From the NCBI GenBank assembly GCA_022508845.1, contig JAFLUL010000001.1:5699-69698 (forward strand): a stretch of DNA of 64,000 nt, written 5' to 3'. The position numbers and the translations under genes are program-made. The notes beneath the pieces were generated by a model. That model was given only the letters and a program-made list of their open reading frames with translations. It made no database searches and was not told where the DNA came from. Position 1 is the first letter of the stretch; every line of letters starts with the position of its first letter. The DNA comes from Oscillospiraceae bacterium. Its GTDB lineage: Bacteria; Bacillota; Clostridia; Oscillospirales; Acutalibacteraceae. This document shows positions 5,063 through 42,498 of the stretch, piece by piece.

Positions 5063-7596
<2,534 letters not shown>

Positions 7597-7600
7597 GTCT

Positions 7601-8173
7601 ATGTCCGGAGTTGAAAAAATCATCGCCCGGTTAAATGAAGAAACCGAGGCGCAGTGCAGAGATATAATAGCCCTCGCCGAGGAAAAGGCGGCTCAGATTA
7701 TCGGCCGCGCTCAGGCTCAGGGCAATGAGATGATAAGAAAGGCAGAGGATGAGGCTAAAAGAAAGGCGGCGCAGATAGATGCGACCGCCAATTCGACTGT
7801 TGTTTCAAACAACCGCAACAGTATTCTTGCTGCAAAGGTTGAGCTTATAAACAGCGTTCTTTCGGCTGCCGAAAAAAGTCTTCACGATTTAAGCATTGAA
7901 GCATATTTCAGCACCCTTGCCGGACTTGCCAAAAAAAATAAGCAGGAGGGGACCGGCGAAATGCTCTTATGCGAGCGCGACCTCAGAAGAATGCCCTCCG
8001 ATTTTATTGATAAGCTCGGCTTCGGCTTTACCGTAAGCCCTGTTCCCGCCGATATAGACGACGGATTTATACTTAAATACGGCGAGATAGAAATAAACTG
8101 CACGTTTGCCGCTCTTTTCAGAGCAAGCTCGCAGGAGCTTCAGGCAAGGGCAAATGAGCTTTTGTTCTCATAA
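7601..8173 (+). CDS. ntpE: V-type ATP synthase subunit E
   Basis: 190-aa protein with a long N-terminal helix (EKII..L.EEAE.....I...A) and a globular C-terminus. Operon position fits. Confidence 0.8.
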   Translation: MSGVEKIIARLNEETEAQCRDIIALAEEKAAQIIGRAQAQGNEMIRKAEDEAKRKAAQIDATANSTVVSNNRNSILAAKVELINSVLSAAEKSLHDLSIEAYFSTLAGLAKKNKQEGTGEMLLCERDLRRMPSDFIDKLGFGFTVSPVPADIDDGFILKYGEIEINCTFAALFRASSQELQARANELLFS

Positions 8174-8192
8174 CGGCGAAAGGACGGACTTT

Positions 8193-9158
8193 ATGAAAGA
8201 CACCGAATATGCCTATGCCGTTGCGAGAATAAGGGCAAATGAAACGAAACTTATTTCCGGGTCGGAGCTGAGCGCGGTTATTTCCGCCGCAGGGTATAAC
8301 GAATGCGTTCGCAGGCTCAAGGAAAAGGGCTATGAGATAGAAGGCTCTGATTATCTGAGCGCGCTCGAAAAAAAGCTCAGTAACACCTGGGAGCTTATAG
8401 AGAGCGTTCTGCCCGACAGGTCGCAGTTTAACAGCGTTCTTATTAAAAACGATTTTCATAATCTGAAGGTCGCACTGAAGGCTCTCGTTTCGGATAAGAG
8501 CGCCGACGGACTGTTTGCTTCTCCGTCCGTTTATTCTCCCGCTGAAATAAAAAAATACGTATTCTCCCGCGAAAACGAGTGTCTCCCCGAGGAGCTTCGT
8601 CATGCCGATCGCAGCGCCTACAGGATTTTAACAAAAACGGGATTTGCGGCTCTTTCGGACGCCGTTATAGACCGCGCAAGCCTTGAATGTTCGCTCGCTT
8701 TCGCAAAAAAAGCGGATAATGAGATAATGCTTAAATTTGCCGAGGCTAAAGCTGCGCTCACCGATATAAAGGTGCTCTATCGCTGCGTTTTAACGGGCAA
8801 GGCGAAGAGCTTTATGGAGAGAGCAGTGTGCGAATGCTCCTCTTTTTCAAAAAAAGATATAATTGAGGCCGCCGATGGCGGAAAGGAAGCTCTTTTTGAG
8901 TTTTTATCCCACACCCCCTTCAGCGGTGCTGCCGACGCCCTTAAGGAGAGCGCGTCCGAATTTGAAAAATATGTCGACGATATTTTAACGGATATTCTCT
9001 CGGTAGGAAAGAGCGAGGCGTTTGGCATAAGCGCGCTTCTCGGATATTATTTTGCGGTAAACACCGAGATTATGAATTTAAGAATAATTCTGTCGGGCAA
9101 GTTAAACGGTCTGCCTGACGGTGAAATAAGAGAGAGGATGAGAAAGCTGTATGTATAA
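8193..9158 (+). CDS. ntpC: V-type ATP synthase subunit C (d-type)
   Basis: ATG 8193 (MKDTEYAYAVARIRANE...) is in frame with track ORF 8106..9158. This is the typical N-terminus of bacterial V-type subunit C. Confidence 0.85.
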   Translation: MKDTEYAYAVARIRANETKLISGSELSAVISAAGYNECVRRLKEKGYEIEGSDYLSALEKKLSNTWELIESVLPDRSQFNSVLIKNDFHNLKVALKALVSDKSADGLFASPSVYSPAEIKKYVFSRENECLPEELRHADRSAYRILTKTGFAALSDAVIDRASLECSLAFAKKADNEIMLKFAEAKAALTDIKVLYRCVLTGKAKSFMERAVCECSSFSKKDIIEAADGGKEALFEFLSHTPFSGAADALKESASEFEKYVDDILTDILSVGKSEAFGISALLGYYFAVNTEIMNLRIILSGKLNGLPDGEIRERMRKLYV

Positions 9159-9462
9159 GCTCGGCGTTATAGGCGATAAAGACAGTATATACGGCTTTTC
9201 GTCTGTTGGACTTAGCGTGTTCTTCGCGGATACTCCCGCCGAGGGCACGAGGATATTAAGAGAGATAGCCGACGATTTCGCGGTTATATTTATAACCGAA
9301 AAGCTCGCTTCCTCAATGGAAACGGAGCTGCAGAGATATGCTTCCAGGCCGTGTCCTGCCGTGATACCCATTCCGGGCGTTGCGGGAAACACCGGCTTGG
9401 GACTGAAAAACGTGAGCTCGTTTGTTGAAAAGGCTGTCGGTTCCGATATATTGCCCGATTAA
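9151..9462 (+). CDS. V-type ATP synthase subunit F
   Basis: 103 aa, MYKLGVIGDKDSIYGF..VG. Overlaps the stop of the preceding gene. Confidence 0.85.
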   Translation: MYKLGVIGDKDSIYGFSSVGLSVFFADTPAEGTRILREIADDFAVIFITEKLASSMETELQRYASRPCPAVIPIPGVAGNTGLGLKNVSSFVEKAVGSDILPD

Positions 9463-9478
9463 GAGAGGTTGATGAATT

Positions 9479-11251
9479 TTGAGTATAGGAAAAATCGTTA
9501 AAGTGGCGGGCCCTCTTGTTATAGCCGAGGGTATGAGAGACGCCAATATGTTTGACGTTGTAAGGGTGTCCGAAAAACGCCTTATAGGAGAAATAATCGA
9601 AATGCACGGCGACAGAGCCTCGGTTCAGGTCTATGAGGAGACCTCGGGGCTTGGCACCGGCGAGAGAGTTGAATCCACCGGTATGCCCCTGAGCGTGGAG
9701 CTTGGTCCCGGACTGATAAAGGGAATTTTTGACGGTATTCAGCGTCCGCTTGAAAAAATAATGGAAAAGGCGGGCAACAATCTCACCAGAGGAATTGAAG
9801 TTCCCTCGCTTGACAGAGAAGCAAAATGGCATTTCTATCCAACTGCCAAACCCGGCGCAAAGCTTACGGGCGGCGATGAGGTTGGATATGTTAACGAGAC
9901 CGACGTTGTTAAGCATATAATTATGGTTCCCCCATCAGTTAATGGCGTTCTTGCCGAAATAAATGAGGGGGATTATACCGTTACGGATGAGATAGGCTTT
10001 ATTCAGAGCGAAAACGGCAAAAAAATTCCGCTCACCCTTATGCAGACCTGGCCTGTTCGCCGCGGCAGACCCTATAAAACAAAGCTCTCTCCCGATATGC
10101 CGCTTGTTACGGGACAAAGAGTTGTCGACGCTCTCTTCCCAATAGCAAAGGGCGGTGTTGCGGCAATTCCGGGGCCGTTCGGCAGCGGAAAAACGGTAAC
10201 GCAGCATCAGCTCGCAAAATGGGCTGAGGCGGATATAGTTGTTTATATCGGCTGCGGAGAACGCGGCAACGAAATGACGGATGTTTTAAACGAATTTCCC
10301 GAACTTATCGACCCCCACACCGGAAAATCGCTTATGGAGAGAACGGTTTTAATTGCCAACACCTCCGATATGCCTGTTGCTGCTCGGGAAGCTTCTATAT
10401 ATACAGGCATAACCATAGCTGAATATTTCAGAGATATGGGTTATAGCGTTGCGCTGATGGCAGATTCAACCTCCCGCTGGGCGGAGGCGCTCAGAGAAAT
10501 GTCGGGCCGACTTGAAGAGATGCCCGGAGAAGAGGGCTATCCAGCATACCTCGGCTCGCGTCTTGCTCAGTTTTATGAGCGCGCAGGTAGAGTTAAGGTT
10601 CTCGGAACCGGAGAAAAAGAGGCCTCCCTTTCGGTTATAGGCGCGGTATCGCCTCCCGGAGGAGATATTTCGGAGCCTGTTTCTCAGGCAACCCTTCGCA
10701 TTGTAAAGGTTTTCTGGGGGCTTGATTCCTCGCTTGCGTATAAACGTCATTTCCCGGCCATTAACTGGCTGACTTCATATTCCCTTTATGCCGACAGCCT
10801 TGGCAAGTGGTTTAACGAAAACGTTGCATCCGGTTGGACTGAAAGCAGAAGCCGCCTTATGGCGCTGCTCTCGGAGGAAGCAAGCCTTGAAGAGATAGTT
10901 AAGCTCGTTGGTATGGACGCTCTTTCTCCCTCTGACCGCCTTAAAATGGAGGCAGCAAGAAGCATAAGAGAGGATTTCCTCCATCAGCTCGCCTTCCACG
11001 AGGTTGATACCTATTCATCGCTTAAAAAGCAGTATCTTATGATGCAGCTTGTTTTAATGTATTACGACAGATGTTTTGACGCGCTGAACATCGGTGCGGA
11101 TATAGAAAAGCTCGCTTCTCTTCCCTCAAGGGAGGATATAGGCCGCTTTAAGTATGTACCCGAAACGGATATTGACGCCGAATATAAGAGAGTTTCCGCT
11201 CTGCTTTACGAGCAGATAGAGGAAGTTGCCTCTCAGAAGGAGGAATTCTGA
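9479..11251 (+). CDS. ntpA: V-type ATP synthase subunit A (catalytic)
   Basis: Walker A GPFGSGKT. Also [14 protein letters not shown] and [30 protein letters not shown] start. Confidence 0.95.
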
Positions 11252-12624
11252 TGCCTAAGGAATACAGAACTTTGCAGGAGGTCGCCGGTCCTCTTATGCT
11301 CGTTAGAGATGTTGAGGGCGTTAAATATGAGGAGCTGGGCGAAATTGAGCTTGCAAACGGCGAAACAAGGCGCTGCAGGGTGCTTGAGATAGACGGAACT
11401 AACGCTTTGGTTCAGCTCTTTGAAAACTCCCAGGGAATAAACCTCTCCAGCAGCAAGGTGAGATTTTTGGGACGGCAGATGGAGCTTGGCGTTTCGCCCG
11501 ATATGCTCGGAAGAGTTTTTGACGGTCTCGGCAGACCCATAGACGGCGGCCCAGAGCTCATTCCTGAAAAGCGAATGGACGTAAACGGAACTCCTATGAA
11601 CCCCGCCGCAAGAAGCTATCCGCAGGAATTCATTCAAACCGGCGTTTCGGCGATAGACGGACTGAACACCCTTGTAAGAGGGCAGAAGCTTCCCATTTTC
11701 TCCGCCTCCGGTTTGCCTCACGCTCAGCTTGCCGCTCAGATAGCGCGCCAGGCAAAGGTAAGAGGAACAACTGAACCCTTCGCCGTTGTTTTTGCCGCAA
11801 TGGGAATAACATTTGAGGAATCAAACTTCTTTGTTGAATCCTTTAAAGAGACGGGAGCTCTCGAGCGTACCGTAATGTTTACCAATCTTGCAAACGACCC
11901 CGCCGTTGAGCGTATCGCCACCCCCAAAATGGCTCTCACCGCAGCCGAGTATCTCGCGTTTGACCTCGGAATGCATGTGCTTGTTATTTTAACGGACATA
12001 ACGAACTATGCGGACGCTCTCCGCGAAATCTCTGCCGCACGAAAAGAGGTTCCCGGCAGACGCGGCTACCCCGGATATATGTATACCGACCTCGCTTCAA
12101 TCTATGAGCGCGCAGGCCGCCAAAAGGGGAAATCCGGCAGTATAACGATGATACCCATTCTCTCAATGCCCGAGGATGATAAAACTCACCCCATCCCCGA
12201 CCTTACCGGCTATATAACCGAAGGACAGATAATTCTTTCTCGTGAGCTGCACCGCCGCTCGGTAACTCCTCCCGTGGACGTTCTTCCGTCATTATCCCGT
12301 CTTAAGGATAAGGGTATCGGCGAGGGCAAAACCAGAGAGGACCATTCAAACACAATGAACCAGCTTTTCTCTGCCTACGCCAGAGGAAAGGACGCAAAGG
12401 AGCTGATGGTTATTCTCGGCGAAGCCGCTCTAACGGATACAGATAAGCTCTATGCCAAATTTGCCGACGCCTTTGAGCAGGAATATGTTTCTCAGGGCAG
12501 CTATACCGACCGCAGCATTGAAGAAACCCTCGATATTGGCTGGCGCCTTCTCAAGATCCTCCCCAGAAGCGAACTCAAACGTATCTCAAATAAACTTCTT
12601 GAAAAATACTACGACAAAGCTTAA
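11251..12624 (+). CDS. ntpB: V-type ATP synthase subunit B
   Basis: ATG overlaps the TGA of ntpA (TGATG). Conserved blocks seen: [31 protein letters not shown] and [26 protein letters not shown]. Confidence 0.95.
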
Positions 12625-29906: not shown

Positions 29907-29993
29907 GCCGGCGTGGCGGAATAGGCAGACGCAAGGGACTTAAAATCCCTCGGTAGCAATATCGTACCGGTTCAAGTCCGGTCGCCGGCACCA
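29907..29993 (+). tRNA. tRNA-Leu (anticodon UAA), CCA encoded
   Basis: Acceptor stem GCCGGCG/CGCCGGC. Anticodon stem AGGGA/UCCCU with loop CUUAAAA. Long variable arm. T-loop TTCAAGT. 3' ACCA. Confidence 0.9.
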
Positions 29994-29996
29994 AAA

Positions 29997-30035
29997 CGAA
30001 AATCCTGTCGACTTAGTCGGCGGGATTTCGTTTTG
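29997..30035 (+). terminator. Rho-independent terminator after tRNA-Leu
   Basis: Long hairpin cgaaaatcctgtcgac-tta-gtcggcgggatttcg followed by tttt. Confidence 0.75.
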
Positions 30036-30048
30036 TATTATTTATTTT

Positions 30049-30144
30049 TCATTATTCAATATTCATCATTCATTCAACCATTCGACAGGATTTTCAATGA
30101 ATAATGAATGATGAAGCCGCTTCGCTGATGAATAATGAATAATT
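30049..30144. repeat. Hairpin element with CATTCATT-type arms
   Basis: Left arm attcatcattcattcaacc pairs with right arm aatgaataatgaatgatgaag. The centre attcgacaggattttc is the inverted copy of the 5' half of the tRNA terminator (gaaaatcctgtcga). Confidence 0.55.
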
Positions 30145-30219
30145 GATTACTAGAAGAGTTGTTCTGTTTATAGGATTTAACAAAGAATGTTTTCGCTTGT
30201 CATTTTGGCCTGTAAACAC

Positions 30220-30320
30220 AAATGACTTTCAATTCTGAACCAAAAGTGTTCAATTGAAAGTCATTTCTTTTGTAAAAATCCTTTATTTAACAGCCTGCAG
30301 GGCTGTTTTTTCTTTTTTGA
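30220..30320 (+). other. Perfect 15-bp inverted repeat followed by a rho-independent terminator (possible small transcript or gene remnant)
   Basis: aaatgactttcaatt at 30220-30234 pairs with aattgaaagtcattt at 30252-30266. It is followed by aacagcc-tgca-ggctgtt plus a T-run at 30289-30320. Confidence 0.4.
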
Positions 30321-30832
30321 TTTTATTGAACAATAAAATTAAAAATACTGAAAAATAGGAACAAATTTTGAAATTACATATAATGCGAACCTCATATGTG
30401 CAATTAAGTTTTTTGCAACTGCGCTTGTTTACAGTAAAAATCGACCTCTTTTCTTTCAGGTGAACCTCGGTCCCTTTTATGGCTCTTTTTTACAGCCCAT
30501 TTTATTTTTGTCAGAGCGTTCTTTTTTATATTATCTGAAAACATCACATCATTGCGATTTAGGCGAGCAGCGGAAATGCACCGATAGGTTCAGCTTTATA
30601 TCGCCGCAAGGCGAAGCGTCATAAAAAACGCTGTGCAGCCTCAGAATATTTGACCGCCGATGGGGAAGCGCTGTCTGATTAAGGTGGATATTTCAATCTG
30701 AGAAACAAAAGAATGGGGGCAAAATGAAATTGTATGCAATACGATATGAAGCAAAGAACTATTTACTTCCGGATCAAATGACAGTATAATTATTATGAGG
30801 AATAATTTAATAATCGGGGTAGTGACATAATT

Positions 30833-31666
30833 ATGGGCAGGAAGCTTTTTTGCGAGATAAGTCCAACAACTTATAAAATCTCAAAGAAGAAAGAAATCTT
30901 ATTAAGATATATGAAAGATTTTTTCAGCAGCGAGAAAATTGCAAAAACTCATTCAAATGAAGAATTACCGAGCATTATTAAAAGCCACAGCTCAATTCTG
31001 ATCAGGAATTTGGCAGGGGTTGATTTAAGGTTGCAGGAAAATAAGGTAACAAACATAATGTTGGCTTGCAATAAAGTTAACGGAATAATTATACATCCCG
31101 GCGAAACCTTTTCGTATTGGAGGACAATTGGTGAAGCAACGCAAAAAAAGGGGTATAAAGAGGGTTTAGTTATAAGCAGAGGCGGAATTACTTCCGGATA
31201 TGGCGGAGGCTTGTGCCAAATGGCTAATATGATACACTGGCTCGTATTAAACAGTCCGTTAGATGTTACGGAATTACATCATCATTCCGATGCTTTGTTT
31301 CCGGATGACAGAAGGAGGGTCCCTTTTGGAACAGGTACATCGGTTAGCTATAATAACGTTGATTACAGATTTAAGAATAATACGGATCAAGACGTCCAAA
31401 TACTTGTATGGGTTGAAAACGGCGAATTATGCGGTGAATTAAGAAGCGAAAGAGAATTTCCTTATCGTTATAAATTGGTTGAGGAAAACCATCATTTCAG
31501 AAAAGAGGCAGACAAATATTTTAGAATTTCCCAAGTTTATAGAATTGTAATTGACAAATCAACAAACGAAGAAATAGCCAAAGAGCTTATATTAGATAAT
31601 CATTCAGCAGTATTATTTGATTATTCATTGATACCGAAAGACCAAATAAGGGATGATATAAATTGA
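30833..31666 (+). CDS. VanW domain protein, no signal peptide or TM segment
   Basis: ETFSYW.. and the GYGGGLCQ motif are characteristic of VanW/YoaR-type domains. The stop overlaps the next start (TTGA). Confidence 0.75.
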   Translation: MGRKLFCEISPTTYKISKKKEILLRYMKDFFSSEKIAKTHSNEELPSIIKSHSSILIRNLAGVDLRLQENKVTNIMLACNKVNGIIIHPGETFSYWRTIGEATQKKGYKEGLVISRGGITSGYGGGLCQMANMIHWLVLNSPLDVTELHHHSDALFPDDRRRVPFGTGTSVSYNNVDYRFKNNTDQDVQILVWVENGELCGELRSEREFPYRYKLVEENHHFRKEADKYFRISQVYRIVIDKSTNEEIAKELILDNHSAVLFDYSLIPKDQIRDDIN

Positions 31667-33069
31667 TAAACAAAATAAAACGGATAGTTGAAAAGCATCC
31701 AAATAGAATTGCTTATAAGGTTAATAATGAGTGTATTACATATAAAGACATTTGGAATCGTGCAGGTGATTATGCGCAGCTTTTAAAAAAGCAGGGTACA
31801 AAGCCTGTAATAATTTACGGTCATAAAAACATAAGCGTTGTTATTTCCATATTATCCTGTTTAATCGCAAACAGGACTTATGTCCCTGTTGATTCCTGTA
31901 TTCCGCTTTATAGAGTAAAACAAATTGTTGAAATGACAGGCTCTTCTTTAGTTTTAACTGAAAATAATATCGAAATAGATAATATTGAAAGCTCCGATTT
32001 AGAAGGATTAAAAAAGTATAAAAATTTTGATATAAGAGAACAAAATAATGAAATCGTTTATATAATATTTACCTCCGGAAGCACGGGAATCCCAAAAGGC
32101 GTGCCGATATCCAAAACAAACCTGAATAATTTTATTGAGTGGATCAGCAGTTTAAAACCGCTTTGCGATTATAAAAATGTAAACGTGTTTAATCAAGCAA
32201 GCTTTAGCTTTGATTTGAGTGTTGCGGACTTATATTACTCATTATGTAACGGTCATACATTGATCGCGCTTGACAGCGGTATGCAAGACGGTTATGACGA
32301 AATATTCAGCTTGATGTCGGAAATAGACGTAGCCGTTATGACGCCAACATTTATGAAGCTATGCTTAATAAATAAAGAGTTTAACGAAAAAAATTATCCG
32401 GGGTTCAAATGCGTTTACTTTTGCGGAGAACAACTGGAAGTTAAGACTGTTCAAAAATTATTTCAGGCTTTTCCTGATTTGAAAATAATCAATGCTTACG
32501 GACCTACAGAAGCCACATCAGCCGTATCGGCAATTTTAATTACCAAAGAAATGGCTTATGAGCAGCAATTGCTGCCGGTGGGAGAAGTAAAAACGTTTGC
32601 AACCGAAATAGAAATCATAGATGATGAAATTGTTTTAAAAGGAAAAAGCGTCTTTAGCGGATATTTGTTAAATATTATCGGCGGACACTATATTGAAAAC
32701 GATACTGATTGTTATAAAACAGGTGATATCGGTTTTATTCAAGACGGTAAATTATATTGCAGGGGAAGAAAAGACCGACAAGTAAAATTCAAGGGTTATC
32801 GTATAGAATTAAATGACATAGAACACAATATCGGCCTGATCAGAGGAGTTAAGGAGTGTGCAGTTGTTGCTAAATATAGTGATGCTTTGGCTGTTAAGTC
32901 AATTATTGCGTTTGTGACGGCCGAAGACGGGATTGATGCGAGCTATATTAAGACAGAATCAGAAAAATTCATACCTCGTTATATGGTGCCGAAAACGATA
33001 AAGATAATTGAAAAATTACCGATAAACCAAAACGGAAAGATTGACAGAAAGGCTTTGAGTGAATTATGA
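31663..33069 (+). CDS. DltA-like adenylation enzyme (D-alanine--carrier protein ligase family)
   Basis: Adenylation motifs seen: IIFTSGSTGIPKG, NAYGPTE, YKTGD, GRKDRQVKFKGYRIEL, NQNGKIDRKAL. Size and layout resemble DltA. Confidence 0.8.
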   Translation: MINKIKRIVEKHPNRIAYKVNNECITYKDIWNRAGDYAQLLKKQGTKPVIIYGHKNISVVISILSCLIANRTYVPVDSCIPLYRVKQIVEMTGSSLVLTENNIEIDNIESSDLEGLKKYKNFDIREQNNEIVYIIFTSGSTGIPKGVPISKTNLNNFIEWISSLKPLCDYKNVNVFNQASFSFDLSVADLYYSLCNGHTLIALDSGMQDGYDEIFSLMSEIDVAVMTPTFMKLCLINKEFNEKNYPGFKCVYFCGEQLEVKTVQKLFQAFPDLKIINAYGPTEATSAVSAILITKEMAYEQQLLPVGEVKTFATEIEIIDDEIVLKGKSVFSGYLLNIIGGHYIENDTDCYKTGDIGFIQDGKLYCRGRKDRQVKFKGYRIELNDIEHNIGLIRGVKECAVVAKYSDALAVKSIIAFVTAEDGIDASYIKTESEKFIPRYMVPKTIKIIEKLPINQNGKIDRKALSEL

Positions 33070-33314
33070 TACATACAAAAATAGATATACCGAAACTTTT
33101 ATATGAAATTTGTGAAGATGAACGGGTTTTTGAAAAGGATATTGACTTAATTGAAAGCGGTTTGCTGGATTCCTTTGCCTTTATTGAGCTTTTCACTAAA
33201 TTTGAAGATCACGGAATCAATATACAGCCCACAAGAATAGACAGATCACAGTTAAAAACTGTTGAGGGAATTGAAAAACTGATAGAAGATTATTTTGAAA
33301 AAAACGGTAAGTAG
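33066..33314 (+). CDS. DltC-like acyl/peptidyl carrier protein
   Basis: 82 aa. GLLDSFAFIEL contains the phosphopantetheine-attachment Ser. ATGA overlap with the upstream gene. Confidence 0.75.
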   Translation: MIHTKIDIPKLLYEICEDERVFEKDIDLIESGLLDSFAFIELFTKFEDHGINIQPTRIDRSQLKTVEGIEKLIEDYFEKNGK

Positions 33315-33484: not shown

Positions 33485-33898
33485 GTGGGACGCCAAAGAA
33501 TCGAAATTAAATTTTCCACCGTTATGAAGGCAAATGAAGCAGTTATAAACCGTTTTAATTCTGTTGACCAGTGCAAAAAAGCGAATTTAGGTAATCGTGC
33601 ACTGAACAGCACGGATATGTACAACTATAATTTTGATTGCAATATTCAGCAGGTAAAGCGGTTAGAGTTTGATGTTCTCTACTACGGTCTGTTCTTTGCT
33701 GATCGCATTGCCATTTTTAAGATGCGCTCAAATGAAATATTGTCTTGTTTTGGATACTCGGATAAACAACACAAAGGTAACGAAGGCGAGGGGCAATTTC
33801 ATCTTAATCGCAGGAGTATTGATTATCATATGCAGAACCACTTTGTTCAGTGGCTTACATACGAAGAACTCTACAATTTATTAAATAGTGAGAAATGA
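33485..33898 (+). CDS. Hypothetical protein, orphan (candidate partner of the adjacent methyltransferase)
   Basis: Track ORF starts at GTG 33485; an alternative ATG is at 33524. No strong RBS. The 3' end overlaps the convergent MTase by 18 nt. No motif recognised. Confidence 0.4.
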   Translation: MGRQRIEIKFSTVMKANEAVINRFNSVDQCKKANLGNRALNSTDMYNYNFDCNIQQVKRLEFDVLYYGLFFADRIAIFKMRSNEILSCFGYSDKQHKGNEGEGQFHLNRRSIDYHMQNHFVQWLTYEELYNLLNSEK

Positions 33899-36049
33899 GT
33901 TTTTTCCTTGCAGAGCATTTTTGATAACGCTTCTATGTTTAGCGGAAAGATTAAACAAATCCATAATATCCTGATCTAAATCCATATACAGACCGCGGAT
34001 GTTTTCGGCAGAACACATTATGCGGTCTACTTTTTTTATGATAGCCGTTTGAGTATTCACTGTAACAACAGGTATCGGCATTTGCTCAATGTGCGAACGA
34101 AGTAATTTAATGGAATTGAATTTCTTTGAAATGAAGTATGCGGCAACGCTTGAGTTAAGTATTGCAAGAATGTATTTTATATCAAGACCATCAATTTCAG
34201 GGATAACAATATTGCAGCTGTTCAGAGAGAGGGTTTGCTCATTGTCATAAGTAAAAACTGGGGTTTCGCAAATAAAACGATACAGCAATTTTTCTTTTGC
34301 CCTGTACATTTCTGTGGGAGCCACTTGCTGAAAAGATTCGGGCACAAATCGAATATAGCTTCCGGAATTTGTTTTGCTGTATCTTAGGATATTGCTGCCT
34401 TTTAAGATAACTTCGTTATCATCACGCTTTTCATCGGAAATATATTCTTTGTTATTACCGGTCACTATTCCGAGTGCAAATTTTGCATTTCCTTTCAAAT
34501 AAGCCGCATTTTCAATGCTGCTAATTGCGTTCAAGCATTCATTTTCTTCATCAGATACATTGAAAGAAAGTGTACCGTCAAAAAAACTTCTTGGTTGTGA
34601 GATGAGGAATCTTTTGTTGCCGATTGCGACCCTGCAGCCGACCGCAGTTTTATTATCATCCGGTGTGATTCCGAGAATAATGGAAGGGCAGTGAACTCCG
34701 GAGAAAACGTTGCCTAAGTAAGTGATAAATTTGAATGAACAGGAATCGAGTATCAGCCTTCTTACAGCGCTATGTGCGGCAACACTCAAAATTGCTTCCG
34801 GAAGAACAAATGCCAGCACACCATTGCAGCAAAGCATAGATAATGCTTTTTCCACAAGCAGATCATATGCCTCAAGGCTTTTTCCTGTGGCCGTTTTGAA
34901 TAGTTTGCGACATTTGGCTGCGTTTTCTTCCGAAAAATCGCTTCCCCACGGAGGATTACCCAGAATAACATCGAACTTTTGCGGAAAGCATTCAAAATAT
35001 GTATTACCTATGGTGATTCTGGATCGCAGATCTGGTACGGATATTTCTGGGAATGTGAGTGCAATATTGATGCGAGCTAAGTGGACACTGATAGGATCAA
35101 TATCCTGACCATATAAGTTTGAGTAATTTATTCCCTTTGTGCCAAGGCTTAATAAGAAATTACCTGTGCCGCAGCAAGGATCGCAGATTGTTTTTTCTTT
35201 TAAATTAGCATCATTCTCGCATAATCTTTCGATCATTTCTTTTACAACCCTTGTCGGAGTATAATAGATGCCCGAAGTTTTGCGCCGGCCAATATCACGC
35301 AAGGATATGTAAACAAATCCCAATGTGTCTTCTCCCTTTACAAAAAGGATTTTCTTTGTTAGCGCAGAGTACAACTTTTTAATTACAGAAGAATCAATAG
35401 TCTCATTTCCTATCAAATCTCTGATTAGAATATGGAAAACGTCAGTTTGTTCTTGAGATAGAAAATACGACAAGATATAATTATCCGGATATGTAATGCC
35501 TCGGCTTTGGTAATAGAGCTGAACAGCAAAATTTGCAAGGAGCACCAATAAATCTTTTTCGTTCTCTATTACGCCAAGTTCTAACAGCTCGGCAACTAAT
35601 TTTTGATTGTACTCAGTTTGAACGTAATCCTTGTAGAGCACCTTACCTGCAGCACTTTTTTTGTTTCTGCGGCTTTTGAGTTTCGTATTATCATCTGAAT
35701 TTAGTTCATCAATAAATTTTTCAATATATTCAGAACTGAACAGCTTACCGTCAATATCCGGAACGAGCTTTCCTAAACGGATCCAATTCTTTGCAGTCGC
35801 TTTTGATATTGATAATAACTTGCATATATCGTCAATAGAAAGAGCGTTTTGTGATATATCAAAAAAGCTCATTTGCTTCTCATCAATGTGTTTTCTTCGA
35901 CCATCAGCAGGCTTGAGGGCATTTTCGGGTATAAGCCATACGCCGCTAACCATATTTGCACCGCTAATGCGACCTTGTTCACACAAAATTTGAACCCGTC
36001 GTTTTGATATATTGAACTTTTCAGCTGCTTCCTTAACCGAAATATACAT
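33881..36049 (-). CDS. N6-adenine DNA methyltransferase (gamma-class, Eco57I/TaqI-like) with two N-terminal HTH_17-type DNA-binding domains
   Basis: ATG 36049 with GGGAGG 5 nt upstream. HTH regions ISVKEAAEKFNISKRRVQ and ICKLLSISKATAKNW. Motif I DPCCGTGNFL precedes motif IV GNPPWG. C-terminal TRD-like region. Confidence 0.85.
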   Translation of the reverse strand: MYISVKEAAEKFNISKRRVQILCEQGRISGANMVSGVWLIPENALKPADGRRKHIDEKQMSFFDISQNALSIDDICKLLSISKATAKNWIRLGKLVPDIDGKLFSSEYIEKFIDELNSDDNTKLKSRRNKKSAAGKVLYKDYVQTEYNQKLVAELLELGVIENEKDLLVLLANFAVQLYYQSRGITYPDNYILSYFLSQEQTDVFHILIRDLIGNETIDSSVIKKLYSALTKKILFVKGEDTLGFVYISLRDIGRRKTSGIYYTPTRVVKEMIERLCENDANLKEKTICDPCCGTGNFLLSLGTKGINYSNLYGQDIDPISVHLARINIALTFPEISVPDLRSRITIGNTYFECFPQKFDVILGNPPWGSDFSEENAAKCRKLFKTATGKSLEAYDLLVEKALSMLCCNGVLAFVLPEAILSVAAHSAVRRLILDSCSFKFITYLGNVFSGVHCPSIILGITPDDNKTAVGCRVAIGNKRFLISQPRSFFDGTLSFNVSDEENECLNAISSIENAAYLKGNAKFALGIVTGNNKEYISDEKRDDNEVILKGSNILRYSKTNSGSYIRFVPESFQQVAPTEMYRAKEKLLYRFICETPVFTYDNEQTLSLNSCNIVIPEIDGLDIKYILAILNSSVAAYFISKKFNSIKLLRSHIEQMPIPVVTVNTQTAIIKKVDRIMCSAENIRGLYMDLDQDIMDLFNLSAKHRSVIKNALQGKNSFLTI

Positions 36050-36291
36050 AGCTGCCTCCCGGTGCATTTAATGAATTTATTATACTCTTTTATGCGAATA
36101 AAGTCAACATTAATGAATATAACAGGTTCGCAGCATTTCCCTGGCAATCACGTTAGAGTTCTCTGAAAAATTCATAAACTGCTTGCCGGAACTGAGCAAT
36201 GCCAACGAGATTACGGGATTTGCCTTCGGTTTCAACCTTGGTCTGCCGCAGGCGGTGCAAGCCGTCTTGTTGGCAGTTTTTGCGGCAAAAA

Positions 36292-41634: not shown

Positions 41635-42498
41635 ATGAAAAAGATAATCAAACTAACGCTGCTTTTCGTTGTTTTAGCTCTAATTATCACAGGAATCGAT
41701 TTTCTGGGAAAAAATCCTTATTATCTCTTTATTGCAGGTGAGCATATCGGTGTTAACTGTGATAAAATCGAAATGAGCGCGGTATATCCCGATAATATAA
41801 AAATGATTTCTCTAAACGAATTAAAATCTGATAACAGGGTCAGGTTTGATCAAAGCGCCATACTTATAAATTCAGATTATCCGCTTCAGGAGGACTTTGT
41901 TCCGTCCTTATCCAAATATAAAGATACCGATGTTCAGATAAATGAATGTCTGAATAAAGCGTATGAGAAATTGTCCGCGACAGTGGGCGAAGAGTTCGGC
42001 AGCAAACTGTTTGTTTCCAGCACTTACAGAACGCAGGAAGAACAGCAGAAGCTATATGAAGAAGATCCGTCTAATGCAAATGCTCCCGGAACGAGCGAAC
42101 ATCAATCCGGTTTGGCGCTTGACGTTTATGTGAAGAATTATGCCGGCCTTGGTTTTATTAAATCGGATGCAGGACGGTTTGTTAATTCAAAGTGCTGGGA
42201 ATATGGATTTATTGTAAGATATCCGTCTTACGGCAAGGAAAAAACCGGAATGAAATATGAGCCATGGCATATTCGGTATGTGGGTAAGCCGCACGCTGAA
42301 ATCATCTATAATAACCGACTGACTTTGGAAGAATATATAGAATCCCTTCAGGACGGCGCCTGGTATGAGGCGGACGGCTATTTGATCTCACGGCAAAAGC
42401 CTCAAGAAAACGATATGTTATCCTTACCTGCCAACTTTACGAATGCGGTGATCTCTCCGGACAATACCGGCAGCTATATAATCACCGTAACTTGTTAA
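41635..42498 (+). CDS. VanY / M15B family D-alanyl-D-alanine carboxypeptidase
   Basis: SEHQSGLALD and EPWHIRYVG motifs. N-terminal TM anchor. Confidence 0.8.
   Translation: MKKIIKLTLLFVVLALIITGIDFLGKNPYYLFIAGEHIGVNCDKIEMSAVYPDNIKMISLNELKSDNRVRFDQSAILINSDYPLQEDFVPSLSKYKDTDVQINECLNKAYEKLSATVGEEFGSKLFVSSTYRTQEEQQKLYEEDPSNANAPGTSEHQSGLALDVYVKNYAGLGFIKSDAGRFVNSKCWEYGFIVRYPSYGKEKTGMKYEPWHIRYVGKPHAEIIYNNRLTLEEYIESLQDGAWYEADGYLISRQKPQENDMLSLPANFTNAVISPDNTGSYIITVTC

Follow-up and report, generated by a model that had tools for sequence, protein, structure and literature searches.

The D-alanylation of teichoic acids proceeds through the Dlt pathway (DltA-DltC-DltB-DltD, with DltX), in which a ligase, DltA, and a carrier protein, DltC, are joined by the membrane O-acyltransferase (MBOAT) DltB and by DltD. 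A DltA-like ligase and its carrier can also feed a transferase outside the MBOAT family, as in AlmE/AlmF/AlmG (PMC4278540), the system by which glycine is added to lipid A in Vibrio cholerae. VanW domains have been identified as L,D-transpeptidases, the Ldt4 and Ldt5 enzymes of C. difficile requiring a conserved Cys and being inhibited by meropenem (Bollinger et al., PNAS 2024, PMC11348318), and a VanW thioacyl enzyme with a Cys-His-Asp triad was inferred in the same study. According to a 2025 review, some VanW proteins are without transpeptidase activity, their roles being unexplained (PMC12729407), and vanW-B is conditionally essential for vanB-type resistance as determined by TraDIS, a sequencing screen of transposon insertions (PMC12211089). 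AdmF and CtaJ are Cys-His-Asp enzymes which use carrier-bound thioester or thioamide donors to form amides (PMC7898593). Here we describe a cassette in which a VanW-domain protein is encoded together with a DltA-family ligase and a DltC-like carrier protein, located in a 64-kb stretch of Oscillospiraceae bacterium DNA (contig JAFLUL010000001.1, positions 5,699 to 69,698), referred to as the window, whose coordinates are used throughout. No paper linking VanW with DltA, a carrier protein, adenylation or phosphopantetheine was found in literature searches.

The cassette occupies positions 30833-33314 on the + strand and consists of three open reading frames (ORFs):

30833-31666, + strand: ORF1, VanW-domain protein, 277 amino acids, leaderless short form
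31663-33069, + strand: ORF2, DltA-family amino-acid--carrier-protein ligase, 468 amino acids, TTG start overlapping the VanW stop
33066-33314, + strand: ORF3, DltC-like aminoacyl carrier protein, 82 amino acids, Ser36 attachment site in LLDSFAF

Neighbouring ORFs share 4 nucleotides each, TTGA at 31663-31666 and ATGA at 33066-33069, start/stop overlaps which had been reported in the initial annotation of this DNA, made from the sequence alone, and which were recovered here. The same cassette boundaries were obtained from independent gene calls on an identical 316-kb metagenome contig, and a Shine-Dalgarno-like sequence, AGGGA, lies 9 nucleotides 5' of the ligase TTG start.

The three genes form a conserved unit rather than a dlt operon that has been truncated, and their recurrence is far beyond chance. 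VanW homologues at 82-88% identity are abundant in metagenomes, and the three that were traced to contigs all belong to a VanW-ligase-carrier trio, in three unrelated contexts besides that of the window. A survey limited to one genome per species yielded 80 loci with a VanW at 54-80% identity, of which 33 have the ligase directly downstream, 33 have a HAD phosphatase instead and 14 have neither. Combining the 33 species-representative loci with the window and the three metagenome loci gives 37 cassette loci, in which the genes overlap or are separated by a few bases. In 35 of these loci no contig end interrupts the cassette, and a carrier could be detected in 34 of them. The carrier protein of one variant has entries on 553 contigs. 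The hosts are Firmicutes of gut and rumen and include Lachnospiraceae, Butyrivibrio, Oscillospiraceae/Ruminococcaceae, Acutalibacteraceae, Erysipelotrichaceae, Peptococcaceae, Angelakisella and the isolate Pseudoflavonifractor phocaeensis An569, among others, many of these assignments resting on metagenome-assembled genomes.

Absence of the Dlt output genes is a consistent property of these loci. Searches by tblastn with the B. thuringiensis and S. aureus DltB and DltD sequences detected no match anywhere in the 64-kb window, in agreement with the initial annotation, and none within ~7-8 kb of the cassette at any of the 37 loci. The search appears sensitive enough, as the same queries detected MBOAT genes at 25-29% identity in two non-cassette loci. 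Linkage of VanW with the ligase/carrier pair, which the initial annotation had left to be checked, is conserved and associated with co-evolution, the VanW and ligase distance matrices being correlated with r=0.88, a value reached in 0 of 2000 Mantel permutations. In a simple neighbor-joining tree of 84 short VanWs two deep clades are resolved, the first containing all 37 cassette VanWs with 11 solitary ones nested inside and the second containing all 33 HAD-linked VanWs and two others. All three cassette genes are under purifying selection, with ratios of nonsynonymous to synonymous substitution (dN/dS) of 0.03-0.34 where dS is unsaturated and divergence adequate. VanW is the most constrained, at 0.03-0.08; its one higher value, 0.32, comes from a near-identical pair (VanW dS 0.04; dS ~0.04-0.07 in that pair), which gives noisier, higher ratios.

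Several other modes of carriage and association were sought and set aside. No full-length VanW match was present in 50,697 phage records. On plasmids the ligase matched only canonical DltA or nonribosomal peptide synthetase (NRPS) sequences at no more than 36% identity, and plasmid short VanWs are without the pair. Fusion of VanW with a carrier or ligase was not observed among the long VanW representatives inspected, the only fusions detected being HAD-VanW, and the neighbours of the solitary VanWs of the cassette clade are unrelated housekeeping or insertion sequence (IS) genes rather than alternative activating enzymes.

ORF1 is a VanW-domain protein by profile, matching Pfam VanW (PF04294) over residues 70-203 and model positions 1-129 of 130 with a score of 145.5 bits, the cut-off being 27. 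It also matches the NCBIfam vanW-gen model over its full length at 200.9 bits, under the cut-off of 365, and falls below the cut-offs of vanW-B (126.9 against 610) and vanW-G (155.4 against 600). The protein consists of an N-terminal helix, the VanW catalytic domain, which includes the SGYGGGLCQ motif at residues 121-129, and a beta-rich C-terminal region; PG4 and complete G5 domains were not found in it. Maximum Kyte-Doolittle hydropathy over 19 residues is 0.83, and does not exceed 1.50 in 83 short-VanW homologues, compared with 2.4-2.7 for DltB, DltD and long-form VanW in the same test, the long-form Bacillus VanW reaching 2.69 at residue 19. Peak hydropathy far below these values indicates that ORF1 is without a transmembrane helix or signal peptide, so that the domain, the GYGGGLCQ motif and the lack of a leader noted in the initial annotation all stand. 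The additional length of the 290-amino-acid homologues is a C-terminal basic tail, not an N-terminal extension.

Cys128, in GGGLCQ, is the candidate nucleophile of ORF1. It is identical, together with H151, D177 and N182, in cassette, HAD-linked, solitary, VanW-B and long membrane-anchored VanWs in a 12-sequence comparison. Across 24 aligned VanW sequences no substitution occurs at H151 or D177, and conservation of C128 is at least 90%, one homologue having Phe. D158 is conserved in the short VanW forms only; D177 rather than D158 is the candidate for the Asp of the published triad. An AlphaFold2 model of ORF1 (predicted local distance difference test score, pLDDT, 86.3; predicted template modelling score, pTM, 0.84) places Cys128 at the start of a helix. 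A Foldseek search of the PDB with this model returned no match with E below 0.15 and a PDB sequence search with ORF1 returned nothing significant, an absence of relatives which agrees with the published view of VanW as a novel fold (PMC11348318).

ORF1 thus has in common with Ldt4 and Ldt5 the PF04294 domain, the Cys in GGG[LVIM]C, the conserved His and Asp and the absence of fold relatives in the PDB. However, Ldt4 and Ldt5 are anchored in the membrane, possess PG4 (and G5) domains and work on wall peptidoglycan outside the cell, whereas the cassette VanW is without a transmembrane segment, signal peptide or peptidoglycan-binding domain and is wired to a ligase/carrier pair. VanW-B/VanW-G shares the architecture of the cassette VanW, being likewise leaderless and of ~275 amino acids, with a maximum hydropathy of 1.12 for VanW-B. 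VanW-B aligns over residues 1-262 of the cassette VanW at 28% identity and shares C128, H151, D177 and N182, but has vanY and vanH as neighbours, whereas the surroundings of the cassette contain no van ligase, vanH, vanX or vanRS gene. Two views in the initial annotation are therefore superseded: that VanW is a domain of unknown biochemical role, now that it is known as an L,D-transpeptidase catalytic domain, and that VanW is normally predicted to be extracytoplasmic or membrane-anchored, since a leaderless VanW is not exceptional and only the long PG4-VanW forms are membrane-anchored. A second cysteine, Cys7, lies in an N-terminal segment, RKLFCE...P..Y.IS..KE (VanW residues 1-21, listed at window positions 30833-30860), which shows at least 85% conservation in the cassette and HAD clades but is absent from VanW-B and the B. 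mycoides short VanW; it may serve as a second thiol or as a docking arm.

ORF2 contains AMP-binding and AMP-binding_C domains with all core motifs present. Its best named NCBIfam relatives are DltA, its best single-domain PDB matches are the DltA structures 7vhv, 3e7w and 3dhv, and its identity to the DltA proteins of B. thuringiensis and S. aureus is 35%, those two being 45% identical to each other. Scores against the NCBIfam DltA models are below the equivalog cut-offs, at 415.1 bits for NF003417 (cut-off 476) and 405.4 for TIGR01734 (cut-off 559.85). Ten pocket positions, mapped by motif anchors and alignment rather than from structure, give the following codes:

Window ligase: D-L-A-V-Y-C-A-S-A-K
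B. thuringiensis DltA: DLMTLCTVAK
S. aureus DltA: DLMVFCTVAK

By the same alignment mapping Asp235, Leu236 and Cys301 are retained in 36 of 36 cassette ligases and K517 is retained in the window ligase. In contrast, Met239 is replaced by Ala in 30 of the 36, and Thr322 is replaced by Ala and Val330 by Ser or Cys in most of them. The codes DLAVYCASAK and DLAVFCACAK together account for 23 of the 36. In DltA, Leu, Met and Cys form the cavity for the D-Ala methyl group and the Cys selects the D-enantiomer (PMC8972799). A D substrate is probable because the enantiomer-selecting Cys is kept, but it is not necessarily D-Ala because the Met of the methyl cavity is Ala here, and the pocket would accommodate a side chain that exceeds methyl in size or polarity. 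The ligase substrate is therefore probably a small amino acid, probably of the D configuration, other than or besides D-Ala. The initial description of ORF2 as a complete DltA-type enzyme accordingly holds with respect to domains, motifs and family, but not with respect to the DltA equivalog cut-offs or the pocket, in which the Asp, Leu and Cys are kept and positions 239, 322 and 330 are altered.

ORF3 aligns with DltC end to end, with an LDS motif at Ser36, as expected from its annotation as an 82-residue carrier with a DS attachment site, and has an isoelectric point of 4.6. The motif is LDS in 29 of 30 cassette carriers and IDS in one, the attachment Ser being conserved; one of two DltC references has LDS, that of S. 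aureus having IDS. Scores are below the cut-offs of both NCBIfam DltC models (NF003464, 36.2 bits against 68; TIGR01688, 29 against 52.35) and of Pfam PP-binding (17.8 bits against 20.8). An Sfp-type phosphopantetheinyl transferase (PPTase) gene is positioned divergently upstream, adjoining the cassette, in four loci (L001, L014, L017 and L026), which fits a functional carrier.

Thus, the cassette shares with the Dlt pathway a DltA-family ligase, in which four residues of the DltA pocket are kept, and a DltC-like carrier. It differs from that pathway in a gene order that begins with VanW, in a third component that is a soluble Cys enzyme and not a membrane O-acyltransferase, in a ligase and carrier that are both below the equivalog cut-offs, in Ala, Ala and Ser/Cys at positions 239, 322 and 330 where DltA has Met, Thr and Val, and in the absence of DltB and DltD from the regions searched. 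AlmEFG likewise consists of three genes, encoding a DltA-like ligase, a small carrier and a dedicated transferase other than DltB/DltD, and is thereby a compact system for aminoacylation of the envelope, but its AlmG is a lipid A acyltransferase of the membrane without relationship to VanW and the host is Gram-negative, whereas the cassette encodes a leaderless VanW and is found in Clostridia. By these sequence comparisons the cassette is most like a carrier-dependent aminoacylation system akin to Dlt and AlmEFG, in which a VanW-type protein would be the new output enzyme; as those systems are defined it is a member of neither, nor does its VanW belong to the resistance-type VanW family. A Vibrio replicon supplied a possible AlmE for comparison, but the match lay inside a large NRPS gene and was dropped. 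An IS-flanked dlt-like operon is present on a Klebsiella electrica plasmid (L097, 1549-5601), and likewise on Enterobacter and K. pneumoniae plasmids (H8, H10), in which DltD, MBOAT, AMP-binding ligase and acyl carrier protein (ACP) genes occur together, the ligase being 35% identical to that of the window.

Proposals for the reaction start from the activation step, in which the ligase would adenylate a small amino acid and thioesterify it onto the phosphopantetheine arm at Ser36 of the carrier. Cys128 of VanW may then attack the carrier thioester to give an aminoacyl-S-enzyme, VanW filling the role of DltB/DltD or AlmG, and an amine nucleophile would resolve aminoacyl-S-VanW into an amide. 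Such a reaction would amount to the latter half of L,D-transpeptidase catalysis, the peptide donor being replaced by a thioester. The acceptor would most plausibly be a cytoplasmic peptidoglycan precursor, either UDP-MurNAc-peptide or lipid II at the inner leaflet, because the natural binding partner of VanW transpeptidases is the side-chain amine at position 3 of the stem peptide, and because the cassette VanW carries no export signal. The product would be a tRNA-independent branch or edit of the stem peptide that alters envelope properties. We regard the general logic of transfer from ligase to carrier to VanW as likely, while for the complete model, including the peptidoglycan-precursor acceptor, the chances appear evenly balanced. 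The initial annotation had inferred an acyl-transfer or release role for VanW and, as target, a cell-wall precursor or a small molecule. The thioacyl chemistry of the VanW L,D-transpeptidases makes the acyl-transfer idea chemically more plausible. The observation on which that interpretation was built is confirmed, all of its genomic predictions hold, and the interpretation as a whole is partly supported.

Five observations weigh against the complete model. Four of seven heterologous VanW proteins were without transpeptidase activity in the published assay (PMC11348318). The short-VanW family is not intrinsically carrier-dependent, since the sister clade pairs with a HAD phosphatase, and the 11 solitary VanWs inside the cassette clade indicate that VanW can persist without an adjacent ligase and carrier. 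No peptidoglycan-precursor gene was found to be consistently linked to the cassette, the neighbours being highly variable. Lastly, canonical DltA nests among deep cassette-ligase branches in a crude neighbor-joining tree, and the ligase is therefore not sharply set apart from DltA.

In an alternative that we consider unlikely, the cassette would be a minimal NRPS-like trio in which VanW is a stand-alone condensation/release catalyst that joins the carrier-bound amino acid to a soluble amine or to another amino acid, and the diffusible product, a signal, antibiotic or osmolyte, is exported. The chemistry has precedent in AdmF (andrimid) and CtaJ (closthioamide), of which one comes from a relative of Clostridium. 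These Cys-His-Asp enzymes stand alone and move a carrier-bound acyl group to Cys and on to an amine (PMC7898593), the same chemistry as proposed for VanW; they have, however, a transglutaminase/papain-like fold and belong to multi-gene secondary-metabolite clusters, whereas the VanW fold is distinct and the module consists of three genes, genes for tailoring, regulation or a second carrier being absent. Directly upstream of the cassette, L061, L064, L066 and L086 have a heterodimeric ABC exporter pair, but only these 4 of the 37 loci do. The location of the cassette in variable or mobile regions is consistent with this explanation, as is divergence of the ligase at ~1.75 times the rate of VanW, which is expected under substrate diversification. 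Conversely, a near-uniform pocket code over distant taxa, two codes accounting for most ligases, speaks against product diversification, and the demonstrated VanW substrates are peptidoglycan stem peptides only.

Somewhat harder to sustain, and in our estimation improbable, is a split Dlt-like pathway, in which the ligase and carrier would supplement or replace DltA/DltC and supply a membrane acyltransferase whose gene lies at another site, be it DltB/DltD or one of another family, VanW being a co-transcribed, independent wall enzyme. The ligase and carrier are indeed closest to DltA and DltC, D235, L236 and C301 of the D-Ala pocket are retained, and the DltB/DltD search covered ~7-8 kb around the cassettes rather than whole genomes. 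Polytopic membrane proteins flank some loci, a Wzy_C-family protein together with a large surface protein in five (L001, L014, L017, L070 and L087) and TraX in two (L070 and L087). Nevertheless, DltB and DltD are near the cassette in 0 of 37 loci, whereas even the Gram-negative plasmid copy keeps DltD, MBOAT, ligase and ACP together, and a VanW without an export signal would be unable to act on the wall. Translational coupling, clade-level linkage and the observed degree of co-evolution are unexpected for functionally independent genes, and both proteins are below the equivalog cut-offs, with a pocket that differs at three positions.

Transfer of the carrier-bound amino acid by VanW to a lipid head group, for example phosphatidylglycerol, as a tRNA-independent counterpart of MprF, is very unlikely. 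Aminoacylation of a lipid from a carrier does have an example in AlmG, envelope-stress genes (PspC, LiaF-like) neighbour some of the cassettes, and the match of the sister-clade HAD protein to PGP_phosphatase hints that short VanWs work beside a phospholipid or phosphorylated intermediate. That assignment is weak, generic HAD models scoring higher, and the two clades differ beside the nucleophile, so that their substrates may differ; in addition, VanW is without a membrane-binding segment and ester formation is not a known VanW activity. Least probable of all is a transpeptidase working in the canonical direction, forming an acyl-enzyme with UDP-MurNAc-tetra- or pentapeptide and swapping the residue after position 3 for an activated or carrier-bound amino acid as acceptor, for although L,D-transpeptidases exchange terminal D-Ala for other D-amino acids (PMC12729407), leaderless VanW-B adjoins the VanY-B carboxypeptidase, which makes tetrapeptide precursors, and is needed for vanB-type resistance (PMC12211089), and a VanY-domain gene lies ~8 kb downstream of the cassette in the window, exchange needs only a free amino acid, there is no chemical reason for ATP and a carrier on the acceptor, and the product would stay on the carrier as a thioester.

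Within the HAD-linked sister clade (33 of the 80 surveyed genomes) the leaderless VanW is translationally coupled or fused to a HAD phosphatase of ~180 amino acids. The HAD gene ends at or overlaps the VanW start in L033, L045, L048, L051, L053, L055, L092 and others, and HAD-VanW fusions occur in L046, L078, L081, L084, L011 (S. warneri plasmid, 454 amino acids), P0124 and P0127. The HAD partner matches Pfam Hydrolase and PGP_phosphatase (PF09419, E=2.3e-7) and is named 'YqeG family HAD IIIA' by NCBI; a ~228-amino-acid protein without a Pfam match often precedes the HAD gene. Cassette and HAD clades differ invariantly at two VanW positions, L112/R112 and Q129/N129, the latter adjoining the catalytic Cys. 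Genes for a BlaI/MecI-type repressor and an M56 (BlaR1-like) sensor immediately precede a solitary short VanW on B. mycoides plasmid p419 (L013, 3395-6825), a context which suggests a leaderless VanW inducible by beta-lactams or wall stress in Bacillus. Short VanWs (L011-L013, L098 and plasmid matches) are labelled 'vanW gene in vanG cluster' by resistance-gene predictors at 32-37% identity, and none of the genes so labelled sits in a van cluster. This indicates that cassette- and HAD-type genes labelled 'vanW (vanG cluster)' are not glycopeptide-resistance genes, and 'vanW' counts in gut metagenomes are likely dominated by them.

The surroundings of the cassette in the window contain the following features, all except the promoter-like site being context outside the module:

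29907..29993, + strand: tRNA-Leu(UAA) (ARAGORN and Rfam), at the upstream edge of the low-GC segment
30000-30028: terminator-like hairpin after tRNA-Leu (terminator scan)
30762..30790, + strand: promoter-like site TTTACT-17-TATAAT (consensus scan), ~40 nucleotides 5' of the VanW start codon
33485-33898, + strand: type II restriction endonuclease remnant (PADLOC REase_II)
33881-36067, - strand: helix-turn-helix (HTH)-N6-adenine methyltransferase, 728 amino acids, intact, convergent with the restriction remnant

GC content is 0.33-0.36 at 30-34 kb, compared with mostly 0.40-0.53 (median ~0.44) in the rest of the window, and the tRNA gene adjoins this segment, supporting the initial view of AT-rich, apparently acquired DNA. 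An island boundary was sought as a direct repeat of the tRNA end resembling an attachment (att) site, and none was found. The AT-rich spacer after the tRNA, 30030-30330, is without an ORF or Rfam family and contains short repeats, ATGAATAATGAATGAT occurring at both 30097 and 30128, as well as a further terminator-like hairpin (30289-30307). No riboswitch or leader upstream of the cassette matched Rfam; a riboswitch or T-box leader was considered as a clue to amino-acid specificity, but permissive E-values returned tRNA only. Among eight cassette loci whose flanks are unrelated in other respects, the sole upstream feature to recur is a TATAAT-like, A+T-rich -10 at equal distance, suggesting that the conserved minimum consists of the trio and a promoter of its own.

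Downstream, the restriction endonuclease remnant matches only model positions 136-223 of 244, the C-terminal third, in PADLOC, and the methyltransferase matches PADLOC MTase_II at 432.8 bits and Pfam N6_Mtase, TaqI_C and Eco57I, such that the type II restriction-modification (R-M) system beside the cassette is decayed and the methylase effectively an orphan. The gene remnants mentioned in the initial annotation are thus accounted for by the truncated restriction enzyme, while the terminator-like sequence it placed after the carrier gene was not detected by the terminator scan. PADLOC had no match for the three cassette proteins, only for the neighbouring R-M genes, and a role in anti-phage defence was accordingly rejected. 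No acyltransferase ORF adjoins the cassette. A VanY-domain gene (D-Ala-D-Ala carboxypeptidase, PF02557) is present at 41635-42498 (+), outside the low-GC segment; its presence may or may not be coincidence, vanY and vanW being neighbours in the vanB operon.

Flanking genes vary widely between cassette loci and, at loci other than that of the window, include integrases, recombinases and R-M systems, in addition to Fic and extra aminoacyl-tRNA synthetase genes. Neighbour clustering for a conserved fourth gene gave only patchy partners: PPTase in 4 loci, Wzy_C with the surface protein in 5, the ABC exporter pair in 4 and TraX in 2. In L070 and L087 (about 7235-12041), from related genomes, the order is TraX-VanW-ligase-carrier-Wzy_C with genes overlapping or abutting, and in L001, L014 and L017 Wzy_C and the surface protein, of ~550 amino acids, are upstream of the cassette; TraX and Wzy_C are possible membrane partners in this subset of hosts. 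Upstream of the cassette in L007-L009 (1-7000; pig and human gut) are fragmented phage-type integrases, class II synthetase genes (tRNA-synt_2b and tRNA-synt_2) and Fic, and downstream are a GntR-ABC pair and a PspC/LiaF-like/DUF4097 envelope-stress module.

Extended to the family, the peptidoglycan-precursor reading becomes more tentative: short leaderless VanWs may be cytoplasmic peptidoglycan-precursor editors that use L,D-transpeptidase thioacyl chemistry, the cassette adding a carrier-delivered D-amino acid to the stem peptide with no need for tRNA, Fem-type transferase or ATP-grasp ligase, a generalization that we put forward as possible though doubtful. If true, this logic would explain the need for VanW-B in vanB-type vancomycin resistance and the job of the HAD-fused clade, and would offer a function for the leaderless VanWs, which have been puzzling since the vanB operon and again after the L,D-transpeptidase finding of 2024. 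A soluble Cys thioacyl enzyme would then be a third output of DltA/DltC-type activation, beside DltB/DltD and AlmG. As gut Clostridia of humans, pigs and ruminants commonly carry the cassette, it could affect the envelope charge of abundant commensals or their susceptibility to antibiotics and bacteriocins.

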